A stretch of DNA of 64,000 bases. Origin: Gammaproteobacteria bacterium. GTDB lineage: Bacteria; Pseudomonadota; Gammaproteobacteria; Steroidobacterales; JBFFHS01. Of the stretch, positions 10,989 through 52,681 are shown piece after piece (within the stretch, counting starts at the first letter, position 1; every line of letters starts with the position of its first letter). Location of the stretch: the NCBI GenBank assembly GCA_041556855.1, contig JBFFHS010000009.1, positions 1,891 to 65,890 of the forward strand, given 5' to 3'. The position numbers and the translations under genes are program-made. The notes below the pieces were generated by a model. The model searched no databases, was not told the origin of the DNA, and was given only the letters and a program-made list of their open reading frames with translations.

Positions 10989-13358
10989 ATGTCTAGATCG
11001 AAGCCGCAAGCGCTATTGGTTACGGCCACTGCCACGGTATTTCTACTGACTTCGGGGATCAGCCTAGAGGGTATTGCCCAGGACTCCGAGGGGGCCTTGG
11101 AAGAAGTCGTTGTCACGGCGCGCAAACGCGAGGAAGCACTGCTCGACGTCCCGCTGGCGATCACAGCGCTGAGTGCCGGTGATATCGAGGCGAAGGGACT
11201 GACCGAGTTCAAAGACGTCATCGACTTCACGCCGGGATTCTTCTTCGCGGAGCATTCGGTTGGTCGCGGCGACCGGTCCAATCGCTTGCTGGTTGTGCGC
11301 GGCATGCGTATCAACACGGAAAACGACCATCAGCAGGCCGCCACCGTGTTCGTGGACGGCGTGCCCATGCTGGGTAGCGTCATCGCGGGTCTTGAAGACG
11401 CGGAGCGGATCGAGGTGATCAGGGGTCCACAAAGCGCCTATTTTGGCCGCTCTACCTTTGCCGGCGCCGTAAATTTCGTGACTAAGACACCGGGAGACGA
11501 ATTTACCGGCAAGGTGACTGCTGAGGCGGGGAATTTCGGCACCTCGAATTTCGGGCTGCAGATAGAAGGGCCCATCAGCGACACCCTGTCTTACCGCTTG
11601 TCTGGTAGTCAGTGGCAGACCAACGGACATTGGGATCTCGGTAATGATCCGACGATCACGTTGGGGGCACGCAAGACGACCAGCTTCGCCGGCACACTAT
11701 TCTTTCAGCCCAACGAACGGTTCACCGCCAAGCTGCGCATTCACAACTGGCGTGACGATGATGGACCATCCGCCGCCTTCGGCTACGGCTTTGGCAACGG
11801 CGAATCCTATTTCAACTGCAACCCGCCGGGATCCATCTTGGCGCCGCGCAACGGGCCCAACAATTACATCTGCGGTGAGGCGCCGTTTCCACAACCTTCT
11901 GAGATTCAGGGCGACTTCGTTCTAACGCCGGAGAAGCAGCAACTGTTGAACGGCGTGGCGGATCCCGGACTCAGCCTGGACGCAGCCTTCATTCCGCCTT
12001 TCCTGGAGGGCTTTGGTCTGGAGCGCCGGGCCGAGCAGGCCAGTCTGATCATGGACTATGAGTTCGAGAACGGCATCATGCTGACCTCCGCCACGGCCTA
12101 TCACTCTAACGAGTGGATGGCTCTGGATGATCTGGACCGACGGCATTACGATCCGCTGCCCTCACAGGTTCAGGACACCGCGCTTCTGAACAGTCGCGAT
12201 CTGGAAGATTTCAGTCAGGAAATCCGGGTCACTTCGCCGCAGGACAGACGCCTGCGTTGGACAGTGGGCGTGAGCTATTTCGACTTTGAAGGTGTGCGCA
12301 CCAGTGGTTTCAAAGTTCTCGGTAGCATCCGCTCGTTCAGCTTCGGCAACGTTTTCGATATCACCACAACGGGGATCTTCGGCGCCGTCGAGTACGACTT
12401 CAACGACCAGTTTACGCTGAGCGTGGAGGCTCGCCGACAGGAGGATGACCTGACCGAAGCCAGAACCACGGGCGCTGAATCCGCGTCGGGCACGTTCACC
12501 AGCACGACTCCGCGGATCATTCTGGATTACAAGCCTAATGCTGACCTCACGCTTTATGCCAGCTACGGTGAAGGGACCCGCCCGGGCGCCTTCAACGTGA
12601 ACCTGCTCGGCCAGCCCCAGAGCGTTCTGGATCAGCTTGCAGAAGTGGGGATCGGCACCGAGGTGCCGGAAGAGGAACTGGAGAACATCGAGTTTGGCAT
12701 AAAGGGCACACTGCTGGACGGGCGCGCCCAATTCAGTGCGGCGGTGTACAGCGCGGACTGGGATGCTCAAAGCGCAACCGCGCGCCAGGTCACTCTTCCA
12801 GATGGATCGACCGATTTTCTCTCGGGCAACGTAATTGGCGGAGTGATCGATCTGTTCGGCTTCGAAGTTGAGGGTGTTTGGGCGGCCACCGACAACCTCA
12901 CTCTGGAGGGCACATTCAGCTACAACGAGGCGGAATTCAAAGTATTCGAGGACTGCGGTGATTGCGCCTTCCTGCTGGGAACGACAGACATCTCAGGTCG
13001 CGGCAATGTGAAGAGCCGCAGCCCCGAGACCCAGGCGTCTCTGTCGGGCACCTATCAGGCGCGGCTCAATGATGTCTACGATTGGTTCACCCGGCTGGAT
13101 TTCATTCACACCGGTAGCCGTTATGCGACGGACGCTAACCTGCTGGAGACCGGCGATGCCAACCGCTTCAACCTGCGCGTAGGAATTGAGAACGAGAATC
13201 TGCGTTTGGAAGCATACGGAGAGAACCTGTTCGAGGACCGGACCTTTACGAACTATCAGCTGTTGCTTGATTTCTCCCAATTCGGTCTCAATCGCGTCAT
13301 TACCGCCGGGTTACCCGATGACCGCACCTTCGGTGTCCGGGCGGTCTACACGTTCTAA
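10989..13358 (+). CDS. TonB-dependent outer-membrane receptor
   Basis: Signal peptide and plug region (EEVVVTARKREEALLDVPLAITALSAGDIEAKG, VIRGPQSAYFGRSTFAGAVNFVTK). Long beta-barrel ending in FGVRAVYTF with terminal aromatic residue. Confidence 0.9.
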   Translation: MSRSKPQALLVTATATVFLLTSGISLEGIAQDSEGALEEVVVTARKREEALLDVPLAITALSAGDIEAKGLTEFKDVIDFTPGFFFAEHSVGRGDRSNRLLVVRGMRINTENDHQQAATVFVDGVPMLGSVIAGLEDAERIEVIRGPQSAYFGRSTFAGAVNFVTKTPGDEFTGKVTAEAGNFGTSNFGLQIEGPISDTLSYRLSGSQWQTNGHWDLGNDPTITLGARKTTSFAGTLFFQPNERFTAKLRIHNWRDDDGPSAAFGYGFGNGESYFNCNPPGSILAPRNGPNNYICGEAPFPQPSEIQGDFVLTPEKQQLLNGVADPGLSLDAAFIPPFLEGFGLERRAEQASLIMDYEFENGIMLTSATAYHSNEWMALDDLDRRHYDPLPSQVQDTALLNSRDLEDFSQEIRVTSPQDRRLRWTVGVSYFDFEGVRTSGFKVLGSIRSFSFGNVFDITTTGIFGAVEYDFNDQFTLSVEARRQEDDLTEARTTGAESASGTFTSTTPRIILDYKPNADLTLYASYGEGTRPGAFNVNLLGQPQSVLDQLAEVGIGTEVPEEELENIEFGIKGTLLDGRAQFSAAVYSADWDAQSATARQVTLPDGSTDFLSGNVIGGVIDLFGFEVEGVWAATDNLTLEGTFSYNEAEFKVFEDCGDCAFLLGTTDISGRGNVKSRSPETQASLSGTYQARLNDVYDWFTRLDFIHTGSRYATDANLLETGDANRFNLRVGIENENLRLEAYGENLFEDRTFTNYQLLLDFSQFGLNRVITAGLPDDRTFGVRAVYTF

Positions 13359-13385
13359 ACGTTCGTAGTTATCGTAAAGCAAGCA

Positions 13386-13423
13386 GCGCCGGGTTCCCGA
13401 TTGGGTTCCCGGCGCTTTTTTTT
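13386..13423 (+). terminator. rho-independent terminator/attenuator after the receptor gene
   Basis: GCGCCGGGTTCCC-GATT-GGGTTCCCGGCGC stem (8 GC pairs, 2x2 T-T internal mismatch, 3 more pairs) followed by T8, 28 nt after the stop. Confidence 0.7.
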
Positions 13424-13465: not shown

Positions 13466-15160
13466 ATGAGCGAGAGGTTTGCGTTACCCGTCATTCTCGG
13501 CTTGTTGGGCTTTACGCTGCTCGGCTGCGCGCCTCGGGATAGCGAGAATGTTGAGCAAATGGGTTTGTTGTCAGGAACGGTTACATCGGATCAACCTTTT
13601 AAGGCGGCTCAAGTCACTGCCCGGCACCTGGACAAGAAAGTCATCTATACGGTGTACACAGCGGATGGTAACTACCGCGCTGTGCACATGTTCCCCGGAC
13701 GCTACGAGGTGCGGGTAGAGAAGTCAGGTTTTGAGACTCCGGCGCAGCAAATCGAGATCGAACCCGGCGGCCGGCATGTTGCTGATTTCAAGCTGCAGGC
13801 CGTGGATCCTGAGTCGCTGGCCCAGGAGCAATATGCGGGCTCCAAATTCATGGTCGATGCGCTGCAGCTTGCGTCCTACGATGAGGTTTATCCACCCGGG
13901 CCGGGCAGAGAGTTGGTCGAGCAGACCTGCATCATCTGCCACGGCGTCAATTATCTGCCCGGCGGCCCTCGCAACGAAGCGGCCTGGGACGCCGCCTTGG
14001 ACATGATGATGAACCAGGGTCAGGCCTATGGGGTTGAAGACGGCGCCTCACTGATTGCGCCTGACGTTATTGATGCCCAGGAGCGGGAGGTGCTGCTGGC
14101 CTATCTGACCGAAAATTTCGGTGACGACGACCCACTGCGCGCCGTGCGTATTGACGGGGAGTTTCCCCTGGACGAGGCAGCCCTGGCCAAGGCCATGTAT
14201 GTGGAATATGAGTTGCCCGACACCGAGGACATGACGAATCGTTGGATCCAGGAACCCCATTTCGACGCCGAGGGTAATGTCTGGTTTACGGAGCGCGGGT
14301 TTCCCAGCGCCATGACACGGCTTGATCCGCGCACGGCCACGTACACGGATTTCATGAATCCTGATCCCGCCGGTTCACCCCACGGCGTGGTGGTGGATCC
14401 GGAGGGTTTCGTCTGGTGGGCGGGGCGCGAAGTCCATCTGGCGCGGCTTGATCCAAGCACCGGAGAGGTTCGCGAATATCCGGTGGAGAAGCCGGGGCTG
14501 CACGGCCACACGCCGGTGCTGGACTCAAAGAGCAATATTTGGTTCTCCATGCTGCCGGGGAACCGGATTGGCAAGTGGGACCGGCAGACGGAAAAGCTCA
14601 CCCTTTACGAAGTACCCACGGCTCGGGCCAGGCCATACGGCATCGTTGTGGCTCCCGACGATCAGGTCTGGTTTGCCGAGTTCCATGTTTGTCGCATTGG
14701 TCGTTTCGACCCGGACACGGAGCGTTTCAGCGAATATTCCGGCCCAACCAAGGCCTGCACCATTCGCCGCTTGGGTATGGACTCCAAGGGGATTGTCTGG
14801 TTCGGCTTGTTCAGCGCCGGCAAGCTGGGTCGGCTGGATCCCAAGACGGGGGAGGTGACGGAGTACGAGATTCCGGCACAGTTCTCAGAACCCTATGACA
14901 CCTGGCCCGACGCCGAGGACAATATCTGGATCAGCGACGGCGGTCAGCGGGGCGCCCTGATCAAGTTCGATCAACAGACCGAGACGTTCACCTTTTATCC
15001 GTCGCGCTTGAGGACGGACATGCCCAAACTCGCCATCACCCGTGACGGAGCCATCTGGTACAGTGCCCGCTGGGCAGCTCGCTCCTCCGACACACCGGCC
15101 ACGGTGGGTGTCCTTTACCCGGATATGGACAAGGTCGAGACGCTGGGAGCCTACTACTGA
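13466..15160 (+). CDS. lipoprotein: CarboxypepD_reg-like domain + mono-heme cytochrome c site + Vgb (streptogramin lyase)-like 7-bladed propeller (paralog A)
   Basis: GGGAGGAAGG RBS and LLGC lipobox. FPGRYEVRVEKSGFE Ig-like segment and CIICHG heme motif. Seven repeats ending like IGRFDPDTERFSEY / LGRLDPKTGEVTEYEIP. Confidence 0.8.
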   Translation: MSERFALPVILGLLGFTLLGCAPRDSENVEQMGLLSGTVTSDQPFKAAQVTARHLDKKVIYTVYTADGNYRAVHMFPGRYEVRVEKSGFETPAQQIEIEPGGRHVADFKLQAVDPESLAQEQYAGSKFMVDALQLASYDEVYPPGPGRELVEQTCIICHGVNYLPGGPRNEAAWDAALDMMMNQGQAYGVEDGASLIAPDVIDAQEREVLLAYLTENFGDDDPLRAVRIDGEFPLDEAALAKAMYVEYELPDTEDMTNRWIQEPHFDAEGNVWFTERGFPSAMTRLDPRTATYTDFMNPDPAGSPHGVVVDPEGFVWWAGREVHLARLDPSTGEVREYPVEKPGLHGHTPVLDSKSNIWFSMLPGNRIGKWDRQTEKLTLYEVPTARARPYGIVVAPDDQVWFAEFHVCRIGRFDPDTERFSEYSGPTKACTIRRLGMDSKGIVWFGLFSAGKLGRLDPKTGEVTEYEIPAQFSEPYDTWPDAEDNIWISDGGQRGALIKFDQQTETFTFYPSRLRTDMPKLAITRDGAIWYSARWAARSSDTPATVGVLYPDMDKVETLGAYY

Positions 15161-15230
15161 GGTGATAACGCGTCTGTCCTGCGGGCTCGTTCGGTCCCGT
15201 CTCAGCCCTCTGGCGTCGAGACTCCCGGAT

Positions 15231-16535
15231 ATGAGGGTTATCGCCTGGTTGCTGGTTCTCTGGAGCCTCGCGGCGTCGCTGCCGAGCAGGGCCGAGGAAA
15301 AATATGCCCGGCCGGCGTCATCCCTGATGCCCGTATCCGCAGTCAAGGACGGTTCCCCGGCCGAGCTCGCATACCGGCTCCGCCGGGGCTTCGGCTTTCC
15401 CAATGCCTATGACGCGGTTGATGAGAATCTCTATTACAACCTCCACTGGGAGGAATTCGTTCCCCACAATGTTGTGCGGCGCGCCGGTCCGGTTCGGCAG
15501 TTGGCCGTGGCCCCTGATGTCAGGGTCGGCCAGGTCATCGCGGAGTCATCGCTGGGCAGGATGTCGCTGGATGAGTTGATCGCTGATCCCAGATCCCGCA
15601 TTCAGGGTTTCATTGTCGTCCACCAGGGCCGGATTGCCTACCAGAGCTACCCCGGTATGCGTGAGGACGATCACCACCTGTGGTACTCCACTGCCAAGTC
15701 GGTGGCCGGGTTGCTGGTGGGGCTGCTGGAGGCGGAAGGCAGAATCGACGTCAACAAGCCCATAGATGTCTATCTGCCAGATTTAGCGGACACCAACTGG
15801 CAAGGTATTCCCATCATCGACATTCTGGACATGGCCAGCGGGCTGGATCTGGCGGAGAACGATCAGACCCGGTTCAATCCCGGGCACTCGGTGGGTCAGT
15901 TTTTCCGGATTGAGCTGGGGGAAATGCGCAGCGTTGACACGCTGACCTCCGATGAAATTCTGTTTGCCGTTAACAGCAAGCGCCCACCGGGTCAGCTGTT
16001 TGAGTACTCGTCTCTCAACACCAGGATGCTCGCCTTGCTGGTCGAACGCGTCTCCGGTGCGCGACTGGCGGATTTCTTCACCGATCGGGTATGGTCCAGG
16101 ATCGGTGCGGAGGGCGATGCCCTGATGGGTGTGAATCCCTGGGGCGGTGCCGCCATTTATAGCTGGCTCTCCACTCGACTTCGGGATAAGGCACGTTACG
16201 GCATGCTTTACACGCCCAGCTGGAAGGCGGTGGCGACCCAGCCGGTGGTGCCACCAACCCTGCTCCGCAGCATTCAGCGTGATTGCCGTTCCCACATCTA
16301 TCAGAGTGGTGTCACGGCGGGTACAGTTGATCTGGTTGAGGAAAAGCGGTGCAACTCGCGGCAATGGGACACCATCTTCGTGGACGGTGATCTCTACAAG
16401 GGCGGGGCGCGGGGGCAGGGTCTGTACGTGTCGCCCGCCCGCGACCTGGTCGTTGCCTGGTTCTCGACAACACGTGAGTCTGGTTGGCTGGCCTACGCAC
16501 GTGCTGTTGCCAAGGCCCTGGTGCCAGATCCCTGA
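15231..16535 (+). CDS. exported serine hydrolase (beta-lactamase/esterase fold)
   Basis: Signal peptide MRVIAWLLVLWSLAASLPSRA. SxxK motif in YSTAKSV and a downstream YSSLN (YxN-like). ATG at 15231 preferred to the ORF-track start at 15042, which overlaps the upstream gene. Confidence 0.8.
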   Translation: MRVIAWLLVLWSLAASLPSRAEEKYARPASSLMPVSAVKDGSPAELAYRLRRGFGFPNAYDAVDENLYYNLHWEEFVPHNVVRRAGPVRQLAVAPDVRVGQVIAESSLGRMSLDELIADPRSRIQGFIVVHQGRIAYQSYPGMREDDHHLWYSTAKSVAGLLVGLLEAEGRIDVNKPIDVYLPDLADTNWQGIPIIDILDMASGLDLAENDQTRFNPGHSVGQFFRIELGEMRSVDTLTSDEILFAVNSKRPPGQLFEYSSLNTRMLALLVERVSGARLADFFTDRVWSRIGAEGDALMGVNPWGGAAIYSWLSTRLRDKARYGMLYTPSWKAVATQPVVPPTLLRSIQRDCRSHIYQSGVTAGTVDLVEEKRCNSRQWDTIFVDGDLYKGGARGQGLYVSPARDLVVAWFSTTRESGWLAYARAVAKALVPDP

Positions 16536-16557: not shown

Positions 16558-18654
16558 ATGATTAATCGATCAGAACAGTTGATCGCCTCGTTCCTTGCTG
16601 GTGGCTTGCTGGCGGGCACACTCTGGGTGGAGAGTGCAGCAGCTGACGGCATAAAGCGCAGCTTGCAGCGCTCCGAGGACATCTACAACTATGCGACCAT
16701 CGCCACGGACGGTCCGGGACGGGGGTTAGACCTCTACTATCACAAGTGCTGGAAGTGTCATAACGATCACGCCGTTGCCGCGGGGTCGCCAGCGACGATC
16801 CTCAACGGCCTGTTCACCAGGCCTGCGTTGTTATCCGGTAAGCCAGTCACGGTAGCCAACGTTGCTGCCAAGATCAGGGATGGTGGACCGTTGATGCCCG
16901 CGTACAAATACGACCTCAGCGATCAGGACGTTGCCGACCTGGTCAGCTACCTGGGCGAGGAGGACTGCTGCTATGTAGGTGAGGAACCGCCCGCCAATCC
17001 CAGGTATCGCGCTCATCCCTCGCGAGTGGCTCGCTTGGACGGTCCCCGCAAGCTGACCAGTGGACCACGGGGGTCCGTACGCCTCGACTCCGGCGATCCT
17101 CTGGAAGGGATCGCCGTGCAGCTGATTGCCGACTCGAATGCCGTACGGACTACGGTCTATTCCGATGCCGAAGGTGCCTTTCATTTTCCGGAGTTGCTGC
17201 CGGGAACCTATACCCTGCGGGTCGCTCGACCCCTCGAATTCAAAGCTTTTCAGCGCAACGATCTGCGGATCGACGGAGCGAACCGGCTGGATCCAATTGT
17301 CCTGCAACGGGTTGAGGCCATCGAGGGTCTGGAATATACGGAGCTGCTACCACCCACGGATTCCATCGCCGCGCAGCTGACGGGCTCGGAGTGGCTGATG
17401 AACTTGCCCGGTACCGGCCAGGAGAAGCGGGTGTTCAGCAACGCCTGTGGTTTTGCCTGCCACTCCTATCAGCAGATCTTCCGCAATCGTTACGATGAGC
17501 AGGGCTGGCGACAGATCGTACAGCGAATGACGCGCTATGCGGGGTCCCCGCTTATCGTTCCATTTGCCCAGGGTGAACGGCGGGCAGGAGGCAGTCGCCG
17601 CCTGATCACCTATCGGGAAGAAGCCGAGGACATCATCATAGGCTGGCTGGCCAGAGTGCGCGGCCCTGATGCGGTCGACGCGCCCTTCAAGACCTTACCT
17701 GGACCGCGCGGCCGCGCCACCCGTGTCGTCATTACCGAATATGAGATGCCCAGCTTGCTGCTGGCGCTGCACGATGTAGACGGGGATTCGCAGGGTAATG
17801 TCTGGTACACGTCCCACCGGACGCCCTACATCGGCAAGCTGGAACCCCGAACAGGTGTGGTCACGGAATACCGCGTCCCGAGCACCCCGGGTGCCCTGTC
17901 CGGAACCCACACTGTATGGGTCGATGACGATGACATTGTGTGGCTGTCTGAGGGGTGGACCCACAAGCTCACAAAATTCGATCCCAGCACGGAAAAGTTC
18001 ACTCAATATCCCCTGGCCGTCCCGGGGCGCCCCAAGAACTATCCGGGATTTGGTAATTTCGGCCTGGCTCCAGATGGATTCGTCTGGTACGTCATGGGTG
18101 CTGCGGTCACCAAGATCGACCCCGCATCGGGCAAGTTTCTGGAGCGCTATCCCTTTGAAATCATGCGCTTTACCTACGACAATCTGATCAGCAAAGACGG
18201 TACCTACTGGGTCGGCGGCCAGTGGCCCGGCAACCTCATTGGCGTGCTCAACATCAAGACCGGCGAGTTGCGGGAGTTTGAGACCCGCTCCAAGCTTTCA
18301 AGCCCTGCCAAAGGCGCTTTCGGTTGGGACGGCAAAGCCTGGTTCGGTGGCCGTGGTGGGCAACTCATTGAAATCGACCCGCAGACCGGCCGATCCCAGG
18401 AATACTTTCCGCCCACGCCGTACGTGACTTTCTATGAGGCCATGCCTGATAAGAACGGCGAGATTTGGGCAGCAGAGCAACACGGCGGCCATTTCGCGAG
18501 ATTCAACCCGGCAACGGAGCAGTGGGTGCAATATATGCTGCCAGAGCCTTTCGGGCACAACCGCCGCACCTGGGTGGACCACTCTACAAATCCCGTCACG
18601 GTCTGGTATGCCGACCATAACGGCTACATGGTGCGCGTTGAGCCGCTCGATTAG
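16558..18654 (+). CDS. exported di-heme protein: class-I cytochrome c + CarboxypepD_reg-like + second CxxCH + Vgb-like 7-bladed propeller (paralog B)
   Basis: ATG at 16558 after a GGGGGGAAG RBS; the ORF-track start at 16147 overlaps the hydrolase. Signal peptide, CWKCHN ... PLMPAY, LPGTYTLRVARPLEF and CGFACHS. Seven repeats such as IGKLEPRTGVVTEYRVP. Confidence 0.8.
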   Translation: MINRSEQLIASFLAGGLLAGTLWVESAAADGIKRSLQRSEDIYNYATIATDGPGRGLDLYYHKCWKCHNDHAVAAGSPATILNGLFTRPALLSGKPVTVANVAAKIRDGGPLMPAYKYDLSDQDVADLVSYLGEEDCCYVGEEPPANPRYRAHPSRVARLDGPRKLTSGPRGSVRLDSGDPLEGIAVQLIADSNAVRTTVYSDAEGAFHFPELLPGTYTLRVARPLEFKAFQRNDLRIDGANRLDPIVLQRVEAIEGLEYTELLPPTDSIAAQLTGSEWLMNLPGTGQEKRVFSNACGFACHSYQQIFRNRYDEQGWRQIVQRMTRYAGSPLIVPFAQGERRAGGSRRLITYREEAEDIIIGWLARVRGPDAVDAPFKTLPGPRGRATRVVITEYEMPSLLLALHDVDGDSQGNVWYTSHRTPYIGKLEPRTGVVTEYRVPSTPGALSGTHTVWVDDDDIVWLSEGWTHKLTKFDPSTEKFTQYPLAVPGRPKNYPGFGNFGLAPDGFVWYVMGAAVTKIDPASGKFLERYPFEIMRFTYDNLISKDGTYWVGGQWPGNLIGVLNIKTGELREFETRSKLSSPAKGAFGWDGKAWFGGRGGQLIEIDPQTGRSQEYFPPTPYVTFYEAMPDKNGEIWAAEQHGGHFARFNPATEQWVQYMLPEPFGHNRRTWVDHSTNPVTVWYADHNGYMVRVEPLD

Positions 18655-24737: not shown

Positions 24738-24885
24738 AGATACCCCCTTCTCTCTACAGGGCACTGTGATTTAAGCAAATGCAGGGGCAATTCGTGTCGG
24801 AAACGCTGTTGCTGGTTGGAGACGGTTCGCTGCGGCAGCCACCGAGCAAGGTACAGTCTGATCTATCACAGTGTTTTCCATGGAA

Positions 24886-26307: not shown

Positions 26308-26320
26308 GAAAACACAGTCC

Positions 26321-37628: not shown

Positions 37629-37660
37629 GCGCACCGCGTATTGATCGGGAGTAGATTGAA

Positions 37661-38155
37661 GTGAAGCAACTAGTCCAACTGAAAGTGAATGGCAACACCC
37701 ACGATGTGATGGTATCCCCCAACGAAACGTTGGCGGATGCTCTGCGCCGTGGTTTGGGGCTGACCGGTACCAAGATCAGCTGCAATCAGGGCGACTGCGG
37801 CGCCTGCACGGTGCTGATTGACGGCAAGTCCCGGCTGTCGTGCATTACGCTTGCCATGTCCAGTCAGGGCAAGGAGATTCGCACCATCGAAGGCCTGGAG
37901 ACCAACGGTGAGTTGGACCCCATTCAGCGTGCCATCCTGGAGAAGCAGGGTGTGCAATGCGGCTTCTGCACCCCGGGTATCATCATGTCGGCGCGGGGCC
38001 TGCTGGATGAGAACCCTCACCCCACACGGGAGGAGATCAAGCGCGGGCTGTCGGGCAACTTGTGCCGCTGCACGGGGTACACCAAGATCATCGAAGCGGT
38101 AGAAGCAGTGCGCGACGCTGAGTACGAAAAACCACGCCTGGTCCAGGTTCAGTAA
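37661..38155 (+). CDS. xanthine dehydrogenase-family [2Fe-2S] (small, CoxS-like) subunit
   Basis: [18 protein letters not shown], and CRCTGY cluster motifs. GTG start preceded by GGGAG. Confidence 0.9.
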
Positions 38156-38175
38156 CGAATTTCGGGAGAACTGCT

Positions 38176-40665: not shown

Positions 40666-40707
40666 TCGATTCTTCGGACGTGAGCGCCGGGCGCAGGCAG
40701 ATACAGG

Positions 40708-42837: not shown

Positions 42838-42857
42838 GGCAGCAGGCTGGCGCTTGG

Positions 42858-46224: not shown

Positions 46225-47247
46225 GTGAGGAGATGCTCGCGCTGGTCCGCCGGGCGGGTTGCAGGGCTGGTGATGTTGGCTGCCGTGGCCGGTATGGCCC
46301 ACGGGGGGGCGCGGCTGGATCAGATTCGCGAGCGTGGCTATCTGGTCTGCGGGATCACGACGGAAGTGGCCGGGTTCGCTACGGTCGACGGGCAGGGCCG
46401 GTATTCGGGATTCGAGGTGGATATCTGTCGCGCAGTGGCGGCGGCCCTGTTCGGCACCCCGGAGCGAGTCAACTTTCTGGTGGCCGGGTCGGTAGGCCAG
46501 TTCAAGCGTCAAGAGGATATCGATGTCGTTGCCCGGCGCTTGACCTGGACGCTGACCCGCGAAGCCGATCATGGGCTGCTGTTCGGGCCAATCATTTTCT
46601 TTGACGGCGCCGCCTTTATGGTGCGGGCCGGCGCGGATTTTCAAGAGCCGCAACAGCTCACCGGCCGACCGATCTGCTTGCGCGGGGATTCCGAGACCGA
46701 GCAGGCTCTGTGGACCTATGGGCAGAGCACAGCCTTTGAACTGACCTGGAGGCCCTTCGCGAGCAGCACGGAGGCGGCCCGGGCGTTTTATGCTGGGGCC
46801 TGCGACGCGCTGGCGGGTGATCTGTCCGAACTGGGTGCGGAGCGGGCGGCCCAGGATGCCGGGTGGCAGCGCTATCGCATCCTGCCCCATCTGATTTCCA
46901 AAGAGCCGCTGGCGATGCTGATGCGGCAGGGCGATGAGGATTTTTTCCTGATCGTCAGATGGACTTTCTTCGCCTTGCTCGAGGCCGAAGAATTCCATGT
47001 GACACAGAGCAACGTGGACTCGCTTGTCGAAAGCGGGGTGGGAAAGGTGCGCGCACTCCTGGGCGCTGATACCGGCAGGGCGCTCGGACTCGACGAACGC
47101 TGGGTTGCTGCTGTTATCCGGGGTGTCGGCAACTACGGCGAAATTTTCGCGCGGCACCTGGGAAGAAACAGTCCGATCAAGTTGGAGCGTGGGCTTAATC
47201 GGCTCTGGACGTCTGGGGGCTTAATGTATGCGCCACCGGTACGCTGA
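46225..47247 (+). CDS. periplasmic solute-binding protein, family 3 (amino-acid ABC type), orphan
   Basis: LDQIRERGYLVCGITTEVAGFATVDGQGRYSGFEVDICRAVAAALFG is typical of polar amino-acid binding proteins. GTG start 4 nt after the upstream stop. No permease or ATPase nearby. Confidence 0.7.
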   Translation: MRRCSRWSAGRVAGLVMLAAVAGMAHGGARLDQIRERGYLVCGITTEVAGFATVDGQGRYSGFEVDICRAVAAALFGTPERVNFLVAGSVGQFKRQEDIDVVARRLTWTLTREADHGLLFGPIIFFDGAAFMVRAGADFQEPQQLTGRPICLRGDSETEQALWTYGQSTAFELTWRPFASSTEAARAFYAGACDALAGDLSELGAERAAQDAGWQRYRILPHLISKEPLAMLMRQGDEDFFLIVRWTFFALLEAEEFHVTQSNVDSLVESGVGKVRALLGADTGRALGLDERWVAAVIRGVGNYGEIFARHLGRNSPIKLERGLNRLWTSGGLMYAPPVR

Positions 47248-47276
47248 CTGAGCATCCAGGGTAAGCTGTTGCCACC

Positions 47277-47735
47277 ATGATAACTGTACTGTTGATCTTT
47301 CACGGTCTTGCAGCAGTGCTCCTGCTCGGAGCGGTGACCCATCAGGCGATCGTTGTTTGGCGACGCAAGGCCATGCCGCCAGTCACATTTTTGAGGCGGT
47401 TGGTCAACGTGCAGGGCGCCTCCTACACCAATGCCACTATCGCTCTTTACGTTCTGGTGATGATCCTGGGCGGGGTGATCTATCCCAGCTACGTCCTGGA
47501 CGTAAAGGGCAGCCTGACCGATGCGCGCATGTTGAGCGCCATCGGCGCTTTCGAGATCAAGGAGCATCTGGCTGTCATCGGGCTGGCCCTGCTGCCCGGG
47601 TACTGGTACGTCTGGCAGCGAACGGCCGCCGAGCAGCTGCTGGCCCGCCGTCTTAACACGACTTTGTTGAGCGGAATCGTCTGGTGGAGCTTTCTGATAG
47701 GGCATATCCTCAATAACATCAAGGGCCTATTATGA
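47277..47735 (+). CDS. hypothetical 4-TM membrane protein
   Basis: 152 aa with four hydrophobic segments. His at positions 9, 22, 97 and 143 within or near the helices. ATGA overlap with the next ORF. Confidence 0.55.
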   Translation: MITVLLIFHGLAAVLLLGAVTHQAIVVWRRKAMPPVTFLRRLVNVQGASYTNATIALYVLVMILGGVIYPSYVLDVKGSLTDARMLSAIGAFEIKEHLAVIGLALLPGYWYVWQRTAAEQLLARRLNTTLLSGIVWWSFLIGHILNNIKGLL

Positions 47736-48058
47736 AAAAGACGTTGGCTCTGGCGGTGTTTACCGGGGTTTTCGCCGCGGTCTATCTGGCCAGCTTCCTC
47801 AATAGCTGGACCTGGTTTCGCTACTATCCGCTGACCGGCCAGTTCACGATGGCGGATCTGCCGCGAACCGCAGGACCTGCCATGGGCTGGTATGCGTGGA
47901 TTGCCCAGGGCGTGCTGGCAGCGGCCGTGGCGACGTTGCTGGTGCTAATGCTGCCGCGTCGCTGGACAGACCGGGCTTGGGCGGGGCTGGGCGGTTTCCT
48001 CGCCCTGTTAGTCGTGATGTACACCTTCTACGTGGAATGGCACTGGTTTCAAGGGTAA
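47732..48058 (+). CDS. hypothetical 3-TM membrane protein
   Basis: 108 aa, Trp/Tyr-rich hydrophobic protein, translationally coupled on both sides (ATGA at 47732, TAATG at 48056). Confidence 0.5.
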   Translation: MKKTLALAVFTGVFAAVYLASFLNSWTWFRYYPLTGQFTMADLPRTAGPAMGWYAWIAQGVLAAAVATLLVLMLPRRWTDRAWAGLGGFLALLVVMYTFYVEWHWFQG

Positions 48059-48510
48059 TGGCGCGGGCATTACTGGTTGCTCTCATTATCGTGGCTGGTA
48101 TCGATACCGCCTTGAGTAACGGCGATGAATTTTTCCGGGACGACGCCTTCTCCGACGACAAGCCTTTGGCGACTCAGGTCATCTTCAGTGGTAGCGTGAA
48201 AGACGCCGCCGGTCGTTACGTGGAAGACGCCACCATCACCGTGGCCGTCACGGTGGCCACGCCGCGTGGCGAAAGGCGCATTGCTTACAATGCGTACACC
48301 AACAACATCGGTCGCTATCGGACCCTGGACGTGGCCAGCGTCGTGCTGGTTATGGAGGAGGTCGAGGTCACGGTCGATCCCCGGACGGTGGAGCTCAGCG
48401 TGGCAAAGCCCGGATACGAGGTCACCCGGCGCCTGGACCGCAGCCGCGCGGGACAGGCCAGCGGTGTTTTCGAGGTGGATTTCTGGATGGCCAGGACAGA
48501 CACGGAATAG
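48058..48510 (+). CDS. hypothetical exported protein with single CarboxypepD_reg-like beta-sandwich
   Basis: N-terminal hydrophobic helix MARALLVALIIVAGI. FSGSVKDAAGRYVEDATITV...AKPGYEVTRR pattern resembles the Ig-like module of the heme-propeller paralogs. Confidence 0.5.
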   Translation: MARALLVALIIVAGIDTALSNGDEFFRDDAFSDDKPLATQVIFSGSVKDAAGRYVEDATITVAVTVATPRGERRIAYNAYTNNIGRYRTLDVASVVLVMEEVEVTVDPRTVELSVAKPGYEVTRRLDRSRAGQASGVFEVDFWMARTDTE

Positions 48511-48579
48511 AACTAGGGCCCCACTCTGACGTCTGCACCGACAGATGCCGCTTATGCAGAGTTCGCGCACGCTAAACAC

Positions 48580-49278
48580 ATGACCCTGCCAACCATTGCC
48601 CTTTCCAGCCTGGTGCTGGCTTTCATACCGAGCTTAGCCCTCATTGTCATCATGCATTGGTGGTCCCTGAAGGCCCTGACCGCGGTTTATGCCAATCTCA
48701 GAATGCTGGTTCAGTTGCTCGTCATCGGCTACGTGCTTAATTACATCTTCGCCACCGAGCAGCCTCTCATCATCGTGGCCGTGGTGCTGGTGATGATTGG
48801 TGTCTCGGCCTGGATCGCGCTGCGACCTCTGAAGACTCATGACGCGCGCCGCTATCTGGGCTCGCTGGCGGCAATAGGCGCGGCGGGTCTGACCATGCTG
48901 GTGCTGATTACCGAGGTGGTTCTCGATATGCCGCGTTGGTTCGAGCCGCGCTATGTGGTGCCGCTGGCCGGGATGATCTTTGCCAACGCCATGAATACGG
49001 TGAGTCTTGCGGCGGAGCGCTTCGAGGCCGAGCACGGCAGGGGCATCGACTATCCCACGGCCCGGCGGGTGGCCCTGGACGCGGCGCTGATACCCCAGAT
49101 CAATGCGTTACTGGCCGTGGGCCTGGTGTCCTTGCCGGGCATGATGACGGGTCAGATTCTGTCCGGGGTGGATCCCCTGGTGGCGGCTCGTTATCAAATC
49201 ATGGTGATGTGCATGATTTTTGGCTCGGCGGGACTGGCGGCCGTCATCTACTTGCTGTTGCAGCGGCCGGATGAGTAA
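48580..49278 (+). CDS. FetB/YbbM-like (UPF0014) ABC-type permease, orphan
   Basis: 232-aa polytopic protein. LRMLVQLLVIGYVLNYIF and LPGMMTGQILSG resemble the YbbM/FetB family. No partner ATPase adjacent. Confidence 0.55.
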   Translation: MTLPTIALSSLVLAFIPSLALIVIMHWWSLKALTAVYANLRMLVQLLVIGYVLNYIFATEQPLIIVAVVLVMIGVSAWIALRPLKTHDARRYLGSLAAIGAAGLTMLVLITEVVLDMPRWFEPRYVVPLAGMIFANAMNTVSLAAERFEAEHGRGIDYPTARRVALDAALIPQINALLAVGLVSLPGMMTGQILSGVDPLVAARYQIMVMCMIFGSAGLAAVIYLLLQRPDE

Positions 49279-49348: not shown

Positions 49349-49888
49349 TCAGGCATCCTCGCGGTTTTTCAGGGTTTCCATGTGCTCGATTAGCGCATCG
49401 ACCGTTTCCTTGAGCAAATCCAACTCTTCCACCGAAAGATCTTCCAGACGCTCCAGGTTGTATTCAACCGTATCGATGATTTGACTGGCAGGGCGCTGCA
49501 AGGGGCGCATGAAATAGCTGGTGATGGTGGCAACGATGGTCCCGAAAAAGATAGCCGAGCCAACGATGATCCAGATTCCACCGATCAAGCGCGCCAGATC
49601 CGAATCGGGTGTGTTGGCGATACCGGCGGTGGAGAACGCAGCAACGCCCCAGTAGAGCGCGGCACTGAAAGAATCAATGCTGCTGCCTGGCACATCCCGT
49701 TCGATGAGATAGAGGGCTGCGGCAAACAGAACCCACAACACCAACAACAGCAGAATGGTCTGCAGAAGGTAGGTTTCGCTGGCGATGGAGCGCAGATACC
49801 TGCCCATGCGAGGTGTATGGGCAACCTGCAAATGCACCGACGGCTTACGCCGCCGGCCCTTGCTCTTCCGGCGTTTGGTTTTGGCCAT
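49349..49888 (-). CDS. 2-TM pore-loop ion channel family protein with non-canonical filter
   Basis: Basic N-terminus, TM1, pore helix + filter-like SFSAALYWGVAAFSTAGIANTPDS, TM2, and a helical C-terminal tail. TAGIAN replaces TVGYGD. Confidence 0.6.
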   Translation of the reverse strand: MAKTKRRKSKGRRRKPSVHLQVAHTPRMGRYLRSIASETYLLQTILLLLVLWVLFAAALYLIERDVPGSSIDSFSAALYWGVAAFSTAGIANTPDSDLARLIGGIWIIVGSAIFFGTIVATITSYFMRPLQRPASQIIDTVEYNLERLEDLSVEELDLLKETVDALIEHMETLKNREDA

Positions 49889-49915
49889 CCTTTCTGCCTC
49901 GCTGCAGCCCGCTTA

Positions 49916-51607
49916 TCAAACCCCCTCACGCCGAGCAGCGAGCGAGCTGATCTTGCTCTTATCGGGATACAGCACACCGATACCGCCGTTGGCTATGGCC
50001 CGGGTGCTGTACCAGACGTGCCCTTCGCTGGATACATCCATCTTGGGGAAGTCGCTGCTGCGCGGTGAGGGATAGTAGGTGAAACGCTCCGTGCGCGGAT
50101 TAAACTGCACGATCGCCCCGCCCTGGCCGGCGTCGCTCATCCACACCAGATCGGTCTTGCGGTCGCGCCAGACGTCGTAAGGCTCCGAAAAGCGAGACGC
50201 CATGTCGTACTCGTCCCGTTCGCCGGTGCGCAAATCCAGCTTGCCCAGGCGCCCCTGGCTGAATACGCCGTACCAGACCACGTCCTGGGAATCGATCCCC
50301 AAGCGCCGCGTGACGCAGGGGGGGTCCACCAGCGCCGGGTATTCGGTGAAGCTTTGCTTGTCCGGATCAAACACGGCAATGGCGCAGCCATAGAGCTGGG
50401 CCATGACGGGCTTGCCGTTGGGGGCGACGTCCAGCCCGTAGGGCATGGAATTCTTGGTGGGCACGCGCCAGACCTCCACCGTCTCGCTGGCGCGGTCCCA
50501 TTTGCCCAGGCCGTCGCCGTAGATCAGGGTGAACCAGACGTTTTCCATGGCATCCAACACCGGGGTGTGGCCCCCCAGAAAGCCCAGTTCGCCCGTGGGG
50601 TCGTAGGGGAAGCGGGTCATGTCGCCGCTGGCGGGATCCAGCCGGCCCAGATGACCACCGTCCACTTCGGCCCAGTACACGTAGCCCTGGGAGTCGATAG
50701 TCAGCCCATGGGGGTCGGCGGCCGGTTCCGGCAGCTCCCATTCGGTGATCTCCCCAGTACGCGGGTCCAGCCGGCCGAGCGCATTGGGCAGGGTCCGCTC
50801 CGCGTACCAGACGTTGCCCGAAAAATCGATGTGCACCTCCTGCAGCCAGCGTTTCGGCCTGTCCTCGTCCAGCGGCAGCACGTATTCCACCCATTGGGCC
50901 TGTGCGAGGGCTGCCTCATCCAGGGGGATCTCGATGTCGGCCTTGATGCGCCGATCGGGGCTGTCCTCGCCGAAGTGGGTGGCCAGGTATACGGCCATCT
51001 GCTTGTGCTGCTCTGGGCTCACCTGGCCCGGCGGAATACGGTTCACGAGCATGGCGCCTATGGTGGCGTCCCACTCTTCCTCGTTGCGATGAAAAAAGGC
51101 CAGGTAGCTCTTGCCATGGCATTCGATGCAGGTGCTCTCGATCAACGGTTTGATGGGGTCGTCCGGATACAGCTCGTCGTAGGGAACCAAAGGCGCTGAG
51201 CTGAGCCGCTCACCCATGGCCATGCCCATGAAACGGCCCTGTCCCGGCGTCTCCGCCTCGGCCCGGCGCAGGGTGAAGTCCGCGCTGGCGACGCCGCCGG
51301 CGGCAAGATCAACCGTTTTGCGGTCGCTAGTGAACCCGAGCTTCTCCACCCACACCTGATACCGGCCGGGGAACATGGCGACGGTCTGATATTGCCCGGC
51401 GGCGGTGTAGACCATGTAGATGATGTCCCGGTCCGTATGCCGCGCATAGACCTTGGCTGCCTTGAATTCGGCGGGTGCAGTGACGGTACCGCTCAGACTG
51501 GCCAGCTCCGCGAGCGGGTCCTGTTCGCCCGGTTGCCCGCAGGCTGTCAAGAAGCCTGTGAACAGCAGGGGCAGAACGATCCGGACGGGAGACGCTGTTG
51601 TTGTCAT
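49916..51607 (-). CDS. lipoprotein: CarboxypepD_reg-like + mono-heme c + Vgb-like 7-bladed propeller (paralog D)
   Basis: LTAC lipobox, FPGRYQVWVEKLGF, and YDELYPDDPIKPLIESTCIECHG. Propeller repeats LGRLDPRTGEITEWELP and LGKLDLRTGERDEYDM. Roughly half of residues identical to paralog A by eye. Confidence 0.8.
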   Translation of the reverse strand: MTTTASPVRIVLPLLFTGFLTACGQPGEQDPLAELASLSGTVTAPAEFKAAKVYARHTDRDIIYMVYTAAGQYQTVAMFPGRYQVWVEKLGFTSDRKTVDLAAGGVASADFTLRRAEAETPGQGRFMGMAMGERLSSAPLVPYDELYPDDPIKPLIESTCIECHGKSYLAFFHRNEEEWDATIGAMLVNRIPPGQVSPEQHKQMAVYLATHFGEDSPDRRIKADIEIPLDEAALAQAQWVEYVLPLDEDRPKRWLQEVHIDFSGNVWYAERTLPNALGRLDPRTGEITEWELPEPAADPHGLTIDSQGYVYWAEVDGGHLGRLDPASGDMTRFPYDPTGELGFLGGHTPVLDAMENVWFTLIYGDGLGKWDRASETVEVWRVPTKNSMPYGLDVAPNGKPVMAQLYGCAIAVFDPDKQSFTEYPALVDPPCVTRRLGIDSQDVVWYGVFSQGRLGKLDLRTGERDEYDMASRFSEPYDVWRDRKTDLVWMSDAGQGGAIVQFNPRTERFTYYPSPRSSDFPKMDVSSEGHVWYSTRAIANGGIGVLYPDKSKISSLAARREGV

Positions 51608-51637
51608 GGGGTGCTCCTCGTAGTCAGTGCCACCCTT

Positions 51638-52681
51638 CTAGGGGGCGGTCGCGGTCGTCACCACCGAGACGCGGTCGCCGAAAAAGGTGCCCAGGTAAAG
51701 CTTGTCCCCCTCTACCAGCGCCACCGACGGACCCGGGATGCGTCTCTCAGAGTGCGCGTAGATCGTCTCCACTGCAAGGGTCAACGGGTCGATCACGGCG
51801 ACGGCGAAGGGGAACGCACAGGATACGTTGCCAAGCTCCCCGCAGCCGCGGGTGCCGAACCAGGGCGTGCCCGTATGGCCTGCGACCAGCAGCAGCCCAT
51901 CGGCCGTCCAGGTCAGGTTGTCCGGCTGCAGGGGCAGGGGGATTCGTTGGCGGTTGCCGCCGTCGGGGTCGACGGCGGTGAGATCCTGGCCATAGGTGGA
52001 TGCGACAAAGATCCGTCCGGAGGCGGGATCGGTTTCGATACCGTTGGGAAATGCGGCGTCGGTGCCGGGGATGACCCGCCAGCCATCCTGGGGATGCCAA
52101 CGTGCGGCATAGCCTGTATCAAGGCGCAGCAGCAAGCTGAAATTAAGCAACCGGGTGCGCGGCGGTTTGAACATGTGGCTGATGACGAAGCCGCCGTCGG
52201 GGAGGGCGGCGACGTCGTTGGGCGTGAGGTACGCCGGCACGTCGACGCAGCCCTGCCAGATCAGGCCTGGCACCGGGCCTCTAGTGACCGCAAAACGTTC
52301 AATCCGCACCGCAGGGCCCCCGTTGACGACGAGCAGCGTCGTCTGGTCGCCGCTGGTGCTCAGATGAAAGCCCCGCGGCTTCAGCTGCTCAGGTGGCGGT
52401 CCACAGATGGCGCGCTTGCGCTCGTCGCTCGGCGGTGCCACTGCGGGTTGAAGGCGGACCACGCGACCATCGCGACGATTAAGCGCCGCCACGTGACCCG
52501 GTTCCATGCCGTTCCCCAATTCGCTGATTAGCAACCAGTCGGTGCCGGGCAGAAACGCCAGGTCTTCGGGTTTCGCAAACCCGCAGACCACGTGGATGCC
52601 GGGGCTGGGTGCGCAGTCCGGGATGGCGGTCGGCTGGGTGCAACCTGCCAACAATGCCGCTGCGCCCAGGGTCATGGCCAT
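51638..52681 (-). CDS. lipoprotein, six-bladed propeller of the SMP-30/arylesterase (paraoxonase-like lactonase) type
   Basis: MAMTLGAAALLAGC lipobox; ATG at 52681 preferred to the ORF-track start at 52807. AFPNGIETDPASGRIFVAS and PDNLTWTADGLLLVAGH resemble paraoxonase/SGL blades. Confidence 0.6.
   Translation of the reverse strand: MAMTLGAAALLAGCTQPTAIPDCAPSPGIHVVCGFAKPEDLAFLPGTDWLLISELGNGMEPGHVAALNRRDGRVVRLQPAVAPPSDERKRAICGPPPEQLKPRGFHLSTSGDQTTLLVVNGGPAVRIERFAVTRGPVPGLIWQGCVDVPAYLTPNDVAALPDGGFVISHMFKPPRTRLLNFSLLLRLDTGYAARWHPQDGWRVIPGTDAAFPNGIETDPASGRIFVASTYGQDLTAVDPDGGNRQRIPLPLQPDNLTWTADGLLLVAGHTGTPWFGTRGCGELGNVSCAFPFAVAVIDPLTLAVETIYAHSERRIPGPSVALVEGDKLYLGTFFGDRVSVVTTATAP

Follow-up and report, generated by a model that had tools for sequence, protein, structure and literature searches.

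Among described systems, those closest to the locus treated here are the phenylacetyl-coenzyme A (CoA):acceptor oxidoreductase PadBCD of Thauera and Aromatoleum (EC 1.17.5.1), in which a molybdenum-bis(pyranopterin guanine dinucleotide) (Mo-bisPGD) subunit that has an FS0 site and lacks a twin-arginine translocation (Tat) signal is joined by a four-cluster ferredoxin and an NrfD/DmsC-type membrane anchor; the 4-hydroxybenzoyl-CoA reductase HcrCAB of Thauera aromatica (structure 1rm6), a CoA-ligase-linked member of the xanthine dehydrogenase (XDH) family with separate FAD, 2Fe-2S and Mo subunits, which a [4Fe-4S] loop in HcrB allows to run as a reductase, with reverse electron flow; the furan enzymes HmfF and HmfABC of Cupriavidus basilensis HMF14; and the anaerobic indoleacetate (iaa) clusters of Aromatoleum and sulfate reducers, whose theme is heteroaryl-acyl-CoA hydroxylation. 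Here we describe a locus in which relatives of PadBCD and HcrCAB are encoded side by side, at positions 20793-44159 of a 64,000-nucleotide stretch of contig JBFFHS010000009.1 (hereafter the window, meaning the whole stretch of DNA that was analysed). The window comes from the genome of a sediment gammaproteobacterium, which is 3.97 Mb in size and 98% complete and alone represents its family in the collection of genomes searched. Every enzyme family found here is already known and nothing is categorically new; what is new is the recurrent pairing of an XDH-type enzyme of the HcrA clade with a membrane molybdoenzyme of the PadBCD family and a CoA ligase of the ADP-forming type, a pairing of which no description was found in the literature and which also occurs in metagenome-assembled genomes (MAGs) of marine water-column Rhodospirillaceae and of Acidobacteriota.

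Open reading frames (ORFs) were called and then scanned against Pfam and NCBIfam, and transcription units were defined by strand and gap analysis. An earlier sequence-only reading had treated the interval 10989-52681 as a single catabolic unit of about 40 kb. Its inventory of three UbiD-family enzymes, one AMP-forming and two ADP-forming acyl-CoA ligases, two molybdoenzymes, a short-chain dehydrogenase/reductase (SDR), an aldo-keto reductase (AKR), a medium-chain dehydrogenase/reductase (MDR), a FAD enzyme and transporters was reproduced by the family models, and the general logic that it drew from these families, namely thioesterification, UbiD (de)carboxylation and water-dependent Mo hydroxylation, is upheld. 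The single unit did not survive: the interval is made up of at least five transcription units, a mosaic rather than one pathway, and comparative genomics ties together only 20793-44159. These 23 kb hold operon B (minus strand; from first to last gene an AKR, UbiD-3, ADP-ligase 1, UbiD-2, the AMP-ligase, the MDR and a major facilitator superfamily (MFS) transporter), operon C (plus strand; NrfD-type anchor, Mo-bisPGD subunit, four-cluster ferredoxin), a GntR/UTRA regulator, and operon D (plus strand; XDH FAD, 2Fe-2S and Mo subunits, ADP-ligase 2) through its FAD oxidoreductase. As to regulators, the GntR gene does lie inside the interval as had been said, and the IclR-family gene named with it (9878-10789, plus strand; HTH_IclR and IclR_C) falls just left of it, upstream of operon A.

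To define the core we read the genomic contexts around genes homologous to those for the XDH large subunit and the Mo-bisPGD subunit, in 80 named genome loci and with a tblastn matrix over 88 related loci. Such homologs are many and unnamed, and their contexts fall into three recurring arrangements. Type I comprises the window and two metagenome contigs (L033 and L034; 72-88% identity) and has the order AKR-UbiD-3, anchor-Mo-FeS, GntR, three XDH genes-ligase, FAD oxidoreductase. Type II is found in eight marine Rhodospirillaceae loci as a single tight operon with gaps of 2-30 nt, in which a GntR gene is followed by AMP-ligase, three XDH genes, ADP-ligase, MDR, anchor, Mo and FeS genes; MAG loci with this one-operon form are L030, L050-L055, L071 and L145/L146. 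Type III, seen in Acidobacteriota, Vicinamibacterales, Myxococcota and Desulfatibacillum, consists of a CoA-transferase or succinyl-CoA-ligase-like gene, three XDH genes, anchor, Mo and FeS, with FAD_binding_2, acyl-CoA dehydrogenase, old yellow enzyme (OYE)-type reductase, MmgE/PrpD, HpcH/HpaI and amidohydrolase genes as extras. All nine genes of the type II operon have their best match in our genome inside the window, spread over operons B, C and D (AMP-ligase 66% identity, XDH 64/69/75%, ligase 2 69%, MDR 56%, Mo 63%, FeS 57%, anchor 34%). Because every type II gene finds its best match there, we treat 20793-44159 (operons B and C, the GntR/UTRA gene, and D through the FAD oxidoreductase) as one functional core, a proposal that we hold to be evenly balanced in probability, the judgement covering the core model as a whole. 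In a FastTree phylogeny of 83 Mo subunits, an XDH ortholog (at least 55% identity) lies within 10 kb in 21 of the 46 rows of one strongly supported clade, distributed over three separate subclades, and in 0 of the 37 rows outside it.

Several observations weigh against a single core. The closest orthologs of the Mo subunit (65-76%, Rhodospirillaceae loci L038-L049) have no XDH genes nearby, and five Rhodospirillaceae genomes with close Mo orthologs have no XDH above 38% identity anywhere; the pairing is thus facultative, and the complex can evidently work without the XDH. In these XDH-less genomes the Mo complex has other partners: one set consists of genes for an unknown protein, PrpD, a hydrolase, an MFS transporter and a second hydrolase and recurs at 59-73% identity at 3620-8895 of the window, and another consists of a TonB receptor and FAD_binding_2. 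Some relatives pair the complex with a TonB receptor and FAD_binding_2 and have no CoA ligase, so that a CoA-ester substrate is not certain for the subfamily. Identity to type II loci differs between the units (75-77% for XDH against 62-64% for the Mo subunit), which points to separate histories. The near-palindrome TGTATATACT at 36562, a candidate GntR/HutC-type operator, stands only in the GntR/XDH promoter gap, with none upstream of operons B or C, and motifs of its type are no more frequent in the window than expected (4 matches against 5.6). Finally, the window has no recognisable amidase or ring-opening hydrolase, save two alpha/beta hydrolases in its left flank. A single 10-mer shared by the B/C promoters and D neither supports nor opposes co-regulation.

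The divergent identity patterns of the Mo and XDH units, the lack of any operator found to be shared by them and the closest orthologs without XDH are also what one would expect if the operons were unrelated and merely adjacent, their recurring neighbourhood reflecting shared mobility and not function. We consider that explanation improbable, since the pairing is found in at least four phyla and in three different gene orders, one of which is a tight single operon whose gaps are only 2-30 nt, the orthologs of the type II AMP-ligase and MDR are likewise in the window, and no mobile-element genes were found among the window ORFs scanned with Pfam.

Operon C encodes the PadBCD-family complex. Its NrfD/DmsC-type membrane anchor (31548-32453, plus strand; NrfD and DmsC matches, hydrophobic segments) ends in a stop codon that overlaps the start of the PadB-like Mo-bisPGD catalytic subunit (32450-35011, plus strand; Molybdop_Fe4S4, Molybdopterin and Molydop_binding), and a PadC-like four-cluster ferredoxin subunit follows (35018-35650, plus strand; Fer4_11 and related families). 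The catalytic subunit has the invariant FS0 cysteines C23, C26, C30 and C58 plus an invariant Cys153, and its N-terminus (MNKAMSEQ...WVPSVCMGCYNCCG) has no twin-arginine motif and hence no Tat signal. In these features, and in sitting among CoA-ligase genes, the complex resembles PadBCD. It differs in its gene order of anchor-Mo-FeS, in the lack of a phenylglyoxylate oxidoreductase partner, in its recurrent partners (the XDH trio, FAD_binding_2 and MmgE/PrpD) and in belonging to a separate, well-supported clade with 57-96% internal identity that spans Pseudomonadota, Acidobacteriota, Myxococcota and others. Aromatoleum toluolicum T, which was pulled in by the genome scan, provides a direct comparison, for it has two full-length homologs of the Mo-bisPGD subunit. 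The first belongs to a set (Mo 34-36%, FeS 46%, NrfD 34% identity to the window genes) that is followed by FdhD, cyclase, POR_N/PFOR_II, Pyr_redox_2 and thiamine pyrophosphate (TPP)+Fer4 genes, an order which we take to be the layout of padBCD-padEFGHI; its Mo gene forms a long branch outside the window's clade. Because of this low identity and separate branch, the window complex is classed, on sequence comparison, as a member of the PadBCD family and not as a PadB ortholog. The best solved relatives of the catalytic subunit are PsrA/PhsA-type and ArrA enzymes; an AthL-like character, AthL being among the enzymes that the sequence-only reading had named for comparison, receives no support, the transhydroxylase being absent from the 35 PDB sequences matched at E<=1e-10.

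The second A. toluolicum set (L116, NZ_WTVS01000004.1) has the order Mo-FeS-NrfD, is 40% identical and lies apart from the strain's pad-type cluster; its neighbours are FAD_binding_2, a CoA-transferase, two acyl-CoA dehydrogenases and a thiolase that has a DUF35-type partner. In our own genome a second Tat-less gene of the DMSO-reductase family, encoding 959 aa with an FeS gene downstream, is found on contig C98 (8717-11596; L136 3717-6596); by its size only, it is a candidate for a SoeA-like sulfite dehydrogenase of the cytoplasm. Directly upstream of the operon C anchor start, positions 31487-31545 form a long imperfect inverted repeat (AGAATCCCAACC...GGCTGGGGATTCT), of which the 10-mer AATCCCAACC recurs inverted just before the start of the XDH FAD gene.

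Operon D is transcribed divergently from the HutC-type GntR/UTRA regulator gene (35661-36503, minus strand; Pfam), whose product is 77-80% identical to a regulator in L030, L033, L034, L053 and L054. The operon begins with the XDH-family FAD subunit (36741-37628, plus strand; Pfam, CoxM-like, 295 aa), the 2x[2Fe-2S] subunit (37661-38155, plus strand; Fer2 and Fer2_2) and the Mo subunit (38176-40665, plus strand). The last of these falls in the HcrA clade: its best PDB match is 1rm6_A, the alpha subunit of 4-hydroxybenzoyl-CoA reductase, at 522 bits, with the next structure at 285, and it retains the GGAFGGKSE and VGEAPTG loops. The enzyme thus shares with HcrCAB the three-subunit layout, the linkage to a CoA ligase and the closest solved large subunit. 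Its Mo subunit scores 757.3 bits against TIGR03194, however, under the equivalog cut-off of 994.55, and its FAD subunit lacks the extra Fe-S loop: this subunit aligns without gaps to CutM (residues 36-319), has only four scattered cysteines and no cysteine cluster, and did not retrieve HcrB among its PDB matches at E<=1e-20; the homologous FAD subunits of related loci are 290-299 aa long. Nor does the genome encode a visible fate for benzoyl-CoA. Searches of the 98%-complete assembly found no BamA/Oah above cut-off, no class I marker HGD-D and no BoxB (class II BamB was not searched), so that benzoyl-CoA would be a dead end. With no HcrB loop and none of these three markers, the XDH-type enzyme is probably a hydroxylase or dehydrogenase and not a reductase, and a 4-hydroxybenzoate route is unlikely, as is the role of 4-hydroxybenzoyl-CoA reductase, which the earlier reading had cited as an example.

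More distant XDH relatives broaden the range of contexts. At about 52-53% identity, one context is an AMP-ligase with aconitase-like, isopropylmalate-dehydrogenase-like and HMGL-like genes. On a Desulfobacteraceae chromosome, the gene of a 52% identical large subunit has a family III CoA-transferase on one side and a B12 mutase on the other, a set that presumably corresponds to an anaerobic iaa cluster. The window shares with iaa clusters the theme of heteroaryl-acyl-CoA hydroxylation and differs in having no mutase, hydantoinase or CoA-transferase. Downstream of the XDH genes, operon D continues with ADP-forming acyl-CoA synthetase 2 (40708-42837, plus strand; Pfam), which is 64-75% identical in relatives and in type I and II loci always stands directly 3' of the gene for the XDH Mo subunit, and with an amine-oxidase/phytoene-desaturase-type FAD oxidoreductase (42834-44159, plus strand; PF01593; 71% identity in L033 and L034).

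Together, operons C and D invite comparison with anaerobic (4-hydroxy)phenylacetate degradation in the style of Thauera and Aromatoleum, in which a ligase would activate the acid, PadBCD would carry out alpha-oxidation to the glyoxylate and the XDH would act as a 4-hydroxybenzoyl-CoA reductase yielding benzoyl-CoA. Both enzyme families of that route are indeed present and linked, and archaeal ADP-forming synthetases that use aryl acetates are known. Nevertheless, we regard this route as very improbable. No PadEFGHI-type phenylglyoxylate oxidoreductase is encoded in the window or elsewhere in the genome, where the best POR_N match is 28% identical over 178 aa; the Mo subunit, at just 34-36% identity to that of the pad cluster, sits on another branch of the tree; and the missing HcrB loop, the sub-cut-off TIGR03194 score and the failure to find BamA/Oah, HGD-D or BoxB (class II not having been searched) all speak against the reductase step.

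Operon B opens with the AKR (30344-31339, minus strand; Aldo_ket_red; 72-73% identity in L033 and L034), followed by the divergent UbiD-3 (28684-30294, minus strand). UbiD-3 is without the canonical EGPFG(E/D) motif: it keeps NLGKLR (N...R) and DEY, and its loop reads SDYAEDIASGY instead of EGPFGE. Its best PDB match reaches 66 bits only, the protein atlas names it merely as "UbiD family", and it is 87-88% identical in L033 and L034. A 498-aa paralog near the UbiX gene on contig C103 (33% identity; loop IGWHSNPIGYY) likewise keeps the N...R and DEY positions and lacks EGPFG(E/D); between the two genes, in C103:2606-6974 (L135), lie an SDR and an RCC_reductase-family protein. After UbiD-3 come ADP-forming acyl-CoA synthetase 1 (ACS1; 26321-28465, minus strand; CoA_binding_2, Succ_CoA_lig and ATP-grasp_5) and UbiD-2 (24886-26349, minus strand; UbiD domains; start probably at 26307), which are paired in a low-GC cassette: GC is about 0.60 throughout the interval except for 0.50-0.52 across 24-28 kb, where these two genes lie. 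The UbiD-2 clade is rare, with about 10 clusters at 54% identity or more, and its PDB scores are generic. In L147 the ADP-forming ligase is divided between an alpha and a beta gene and is again followed by a copy of UbiD-2, 63% identical to that of the window, and in L033 a single small ORF is all that separates UbiD-3 from the MDR. Because of the low GC and the recurrence of the pair in L147, ACS1/UbiD-2 is recognised by its sequence as a foreign two-gene cassette inserted into operon B, which would either activate then decarboxylate, or carboxylate then activate. The operon ends with the AMP-forming acyl-CoA ligase (23166-24764, minus strand; AMP-binding; 63-68% identity to type II loci, where it is the first gene), a PIG3/quinone-oxidoreductase-like MDR (22157-23173, minus strand; Pfam and NCBIfam; 54-58% identity to type II loci) and the MFS transporter (20793-22136, minus strand; MFS_1). 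Both ADP-forming synthetases (714 and 709 aa) have the fused CoA_binding/Succ_CoA_lig/ATP-grasp_5 architecture and score under every equivalog cut-off for acetate, 3-hydroxypropionate and 4-hydroxybutyrate ligases; for the MDR, AKR, GntR, PrpD and hydrolases, NCBIfam gave generic names only.

The tight ACS1/UbiD-2 pair, in which the two genes overlap or nearly abut and which is kept elsewhere, is the evidence that one would cite for phthalate isomers as substrates, with ACS1 and UbiD-2 as ligase and decarboxylase in an aryl-dicarboxyl-CoA decarboxylation of the PCD/IPCD type. Such a role is extremely improbable. Phthaloyl-CoA decarboxylase (8oz5/8pmk) scores about 63, 55 and 34 bits against UbiD-1, UbiD-2 and UbiD-3, respectively, and is each time among the lowest UbiD structures listed, whereas other UbiD structures reach 190-218 bits against UbiD-1 and UbiD-2; moreover, the product benzoyl-CoA would have no visible downstream route. 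Phthalate isomers, which had been among the proposed substrates, are thus unlikely, and counts of "UbiD, ligase and Mo enzyme" in a MAG do not by themselves indicate phthalate or benzoyl-CoA metabolism. The clustering of UbiD genes is not due to chance: of seven family matches in the 3.97-Mb genome three fall within 11.6 kb, for which we estimate odds of about 1 in 1000 under random placement.

The third of these, UbiD-1, belongs to operon A on the left of the core. It is a short, HmfF-like protein of 438 aa (18685-20001, plus strand) with a conservative DGPFGD catalytic loop, whose best PDB match is the HmfF structure 6h6v (218 bits, residues 5-392 aligned), ahead of AroY at 146 bits, a level of similarity that does not prove the same substrate as HmfF. 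This end-to-end alignment, together with an XDH in the CoA-ester-acting clade nearest HcrA, for which an acyl-CoA substrate is plausible, suggests a furan route in which UbiD-1 would take the role of HmfF on 2,5-furandicarboxylate, a ligase would form 2-furoyl-CoA and the XDH would act as HmfABC; some relatives of UbiD-2 have also been named "FDCA decarboxylase" by the Joint Genome Institute (JGI). Several points make us doubt this route strongly, though somewhat less than we doubt that the operons are unrelated. UbiD-1 and the XDH are encoded in different operons 17 kb apart and are never together in related loci; the sole UbiX of the genome is on contig C103 and none adjoins UbiD-1; scans of the window showed no gene of the enoyl-CoA-hydratase family (the HmfE role) and no GMC oxidase of the HmfH type; and the route leaves without a role the PadBCD-like complex, the XDH's conserved partner. 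UbiD-1 itself is rare: of 399 other genomes sampled from the class, just one has a match at E<=1e-70.

Returning to the core, family membership suggests CoA-dependent catabolism of a carboxylic acid with water as the source of the oxygen atoms, a model whose step order, enzyme directions and substrate all derive from the families and which we judge to stand at about even chances. In the form encoded by the window, the acid would enter by the MFS transporter and would be thioesterified by the AMP-forming ligase, ADP-ligase 2 or both; the HcrA-clade XDH-type enzyme, probably working as a dehydrogenase, would then hydroxylate it, and the cytoplasm-facing, membrane-anchored PadBCD-family Mo-bisPGD enzyme would perform a second oxidation and pass electrons to the quinone pool. 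Reductions or dehydrogenations by the MDR, AKR and FAD enzymes and a (de)carboxylation by UbiD-3 would complete the set, and ADP-ligase 2 might alternatively recover ATP from a product thioester. Should both Mo enzymes act on one substrate series, the result would be an oxygenase-free attack on a stable ring or activated methylene with electrons led into respiration, which would be useful at oxic-anoxic boundaries.

As for the substrate, our best guess, drawn from gene neighbourhoods, is an N-heteroaromatic acid of the pyridine-carboxylate type, and our second choice would be an arylacetic or heteroarylacetic acid, an option suggested by PadBCD chemistry and the iaa-like relatives of the XDH. 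Directly 3' of the type II operon lie genes for both subunits, large and small, of an aconitase-like enzyme, for a protein that resembles methylisocitrate lyase (208-215 bits against lyases of that kind, 173 against dimethylmalate lyase), for hydantoinases B and A, for a hydrolase of the isochorismatase family and for a TRAP transporter; type III flanks carry amidohydrolases, a cyclase, MmgE/PrpD and an HpcH/HpaI lyase. This combination of amide-hydrolysing enzymes with enzymes of branched tri- and dicarboxylates suggests an N-containing ring, which hydroxylation, reduction, ring opening and cleavage would convert to central metabolites. Our own genome has orthologs of the type II aconitase-isocitrate-lyase-like trio (53-61% identity) on contig C40; for hydantoinase and isochorismatase it has no ortholog-level counterpart. 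The C40 operon (1921-6940; L157) comprises a TauD-family dioxygenase gene and, behind it, the genes for the large and small aconitase-like subunits and the methylisocitrate-lyase-like gene, with a divergent MFS gene.

The gene set of the relatives resembles that of nicotinate fermentation and is closer still to the CoA-dependent route for isonicotinate and citrazinate, a likeness that serves as a lead and not as a test. In Mycobacterium sp. INA1, enzymology of the 1990s reportedly established for isonicotinate and citrazinate a sequence of two Mo hydroxylations, CoA ligation, NADPH-dependent reduction and amide hydrolysis to a tricarboxylate; we know of no genes assigned to that pathway. So described, the INA1 route would account for both Mo enzymes, for the ligase and for the MDR, and it would agree with the neighbouring genes of relatives (amidase, aconitase-like, lyase, PrpD and FAD_binding_2). 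It differs in that both of its hydroxylases are of the XDH type and act on free acids. At its most specific, our proposal would be that the core, under a HutC-type GntR regulator, specifies a pathway not described before that needs CoA but no O2 and acts on an N-heterocyclic acid, of the pyridine-carboxylate type or another, with a quinone-linked PadBCD-type enzyme for the second water-dependent oxidation, ring opening by amidases to a tricarboxylate, and cleavage by aconitase- and methylisocitrate-lyase-like enzymes, and that this route occurs widely among marine Rhodospirillaceae, Gammaproteobacteria of sediments and Acidobacteriota of soils. We put forward this full version as a speculative one that is unlikely to hold in all its parts. 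If an N-heterocyclic route were true, these would be genes for an orphan type of pathway. The core is also a testable gene set for giving a substrate to the large uncharacterised PadBCD-like family and to the XDH clade.

The units that flank the core differ from it in their distribution. Operon A (plus strand) starts with a TonB-dependent receptor (10887-13358; Plug and TonB_dep_Rec_b-barrel), followed by an exported, lipoprotein-like protein with heme-c, CarboxypepD_reg and Vgb-type propeller regions (paralog 1, 13466-15160; Pfam, one CxxCH, signal/lipobox-like N-terminus), a serine hydrolase of the beta-lactamase family (15042-16535; PF00144 at residues 190-355; true start probably after 15042), a second heme-c (Cytochrome_CBB3)/CarboxypepD_reg/propeller protein (paralog 2, 16558-18654; Pfam, CxxCH), UbiD-1 and an SDR (20011-20772; adh_short) that starts 9 nt past UbiD-1. 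On the right, operon D is extended by heme-c/propeller paralog 3 (44280-46220, plus strand; Pfam, CxxCH) and by an SBP_bac_3 binding protein, small membrane ORFs and a UPF0014 permease-like protein (46225-49278, plus strand; Pfam). Unit E (49349-52807, minus strand; Pfam) contains an ion-channel-like protein, propeller paralog 4 (49916-51607; CxxCH) and a 389-aa unknown protein. Three of the propeller paralogs are 31-43% identical to each other and the fourth 22-28%; all four are exported proteins that combine a single CxxCH heme-c motif with a CarboxypepD_reg domain and a propeller of the Vgb-lyase type.

The sequence-only reading had joined these flanks to the core in one pathway, in which an exported esterase and propeller proteins with the TonB receptor would release and import an aromatic acid for the UbiDs, ligases and Mo enzymes to degrade. 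That the units are adjacent, with short gaps within each, is in keeping with this, as is the concentration of the propeller family (four of about six genomic copies lie in the window, one of them inside operon D) and one Rhodospirillaceae MAG that has a TonB receptor and exported cytochrome-domain proteins beside an orthologous Mo complex. The comparative record, however, makes such a whole-interval pathway rather unlikely, if a shade less so than the furan route. Across the 88 related loci the propeller, beta-lactamase-family, SBP, UPF0014, UbiD-1 and SDR genes have no ortholog-level counterpart beside the core, propeller paralog 3 and the SBP_bac_3 and UPF0014 genes have no counterpart in any related locus examined, and counterparts of the TonB receptor, at 31-33% identity only, occur in 4 of the 88; UbiD-1 is nearly absent from the 399 sampled genomes, and ACS1/UbiD-2 has a foreign base composition. 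Operon A and the genes right of 44159, paralog 3 in operon D among them, are lineage-specific additions, which may feed the core.

The absence of oxygenases from the interval, noted before, is borne out: no long ORF matches a Rieske, extradiol, intradiol or flavin-monooxygenase family, and the sole FAD_binding_3 match is a sub-threshold Rossmann stretch of the 42834-44159 protein. The oxygen-independent character that was read from this applies within the interval only and does not extend to the flanks, which carry a FAD oxidase of the berberine bridge enzyme/vanillyl-alcohol oxidase (BBE/VAO) type and a cupin. Of these possibly O2-using enzymes, the oxidase lies upstream of the window and the Cupin_7 protein at 1480-2484. 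The left end of the contig (C9:210-3327, reaching window positions 1-1437) encodes this BBE/VAO-type oxidase and a flavocytochrome-c-like FAD_binding_2 protein, of which Acidobacteriota loci and Aromatoleum have relatives (36-38% identity) directly 3' of the Mo complex. Further along, at 3620-8895, are genes for a 309-aa unknown protein, MmgE/PrpD, an alpha/beta hydrolase, an MFS transporter and a second hydrolase, which are 57-73% identical in the Rhodospirillaceae MAG locus L118 (1-6208); in L118 this PrpD/hydrolase block stands within 10 kb of an orthologous PadBCD-like complex and of two CN_hydrolase genes.

That no described cluster has this combination, as had been supposed, agrees with all that we found in phage and plasmid collections and in the literature. 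By tblastn, 72,556 plasmids gave at most 37% identity for the XDH large subunit and at most 35% for UbiD-1, with generic names; a Paraburkholderia UbiD-UbiX locus has no XDH nearby; and literature searches on the gene combination, on heteroaryl-CoA names and on isonicotinate/citrazinate catabolism returned nothing relevant. Among 40 order-level relatives there is no close ortholog of UbiD-3 or of the XDH (at most 37% and 36%, respectively). Near-identical DNA does occur in sediment, estuary, soil and marine metagenomes from at least 13 studies. Contigs from four RNA-library runs in three studies match 22157-42156 at 99% identity or more and are spread nearly evenly over genes and intergenic DNA alike; we rejected them as evidence of expression because they are contigs and not reads, show neither transcription nor co-regulation, and cannot rank genes. 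Beyond unit E, at 53524-55062, the window also encodes an O-methyltransferase, in which an N-terminal extension of about 190 aa without a family match is joined to Methyltransf_2 and dimerisation domains.

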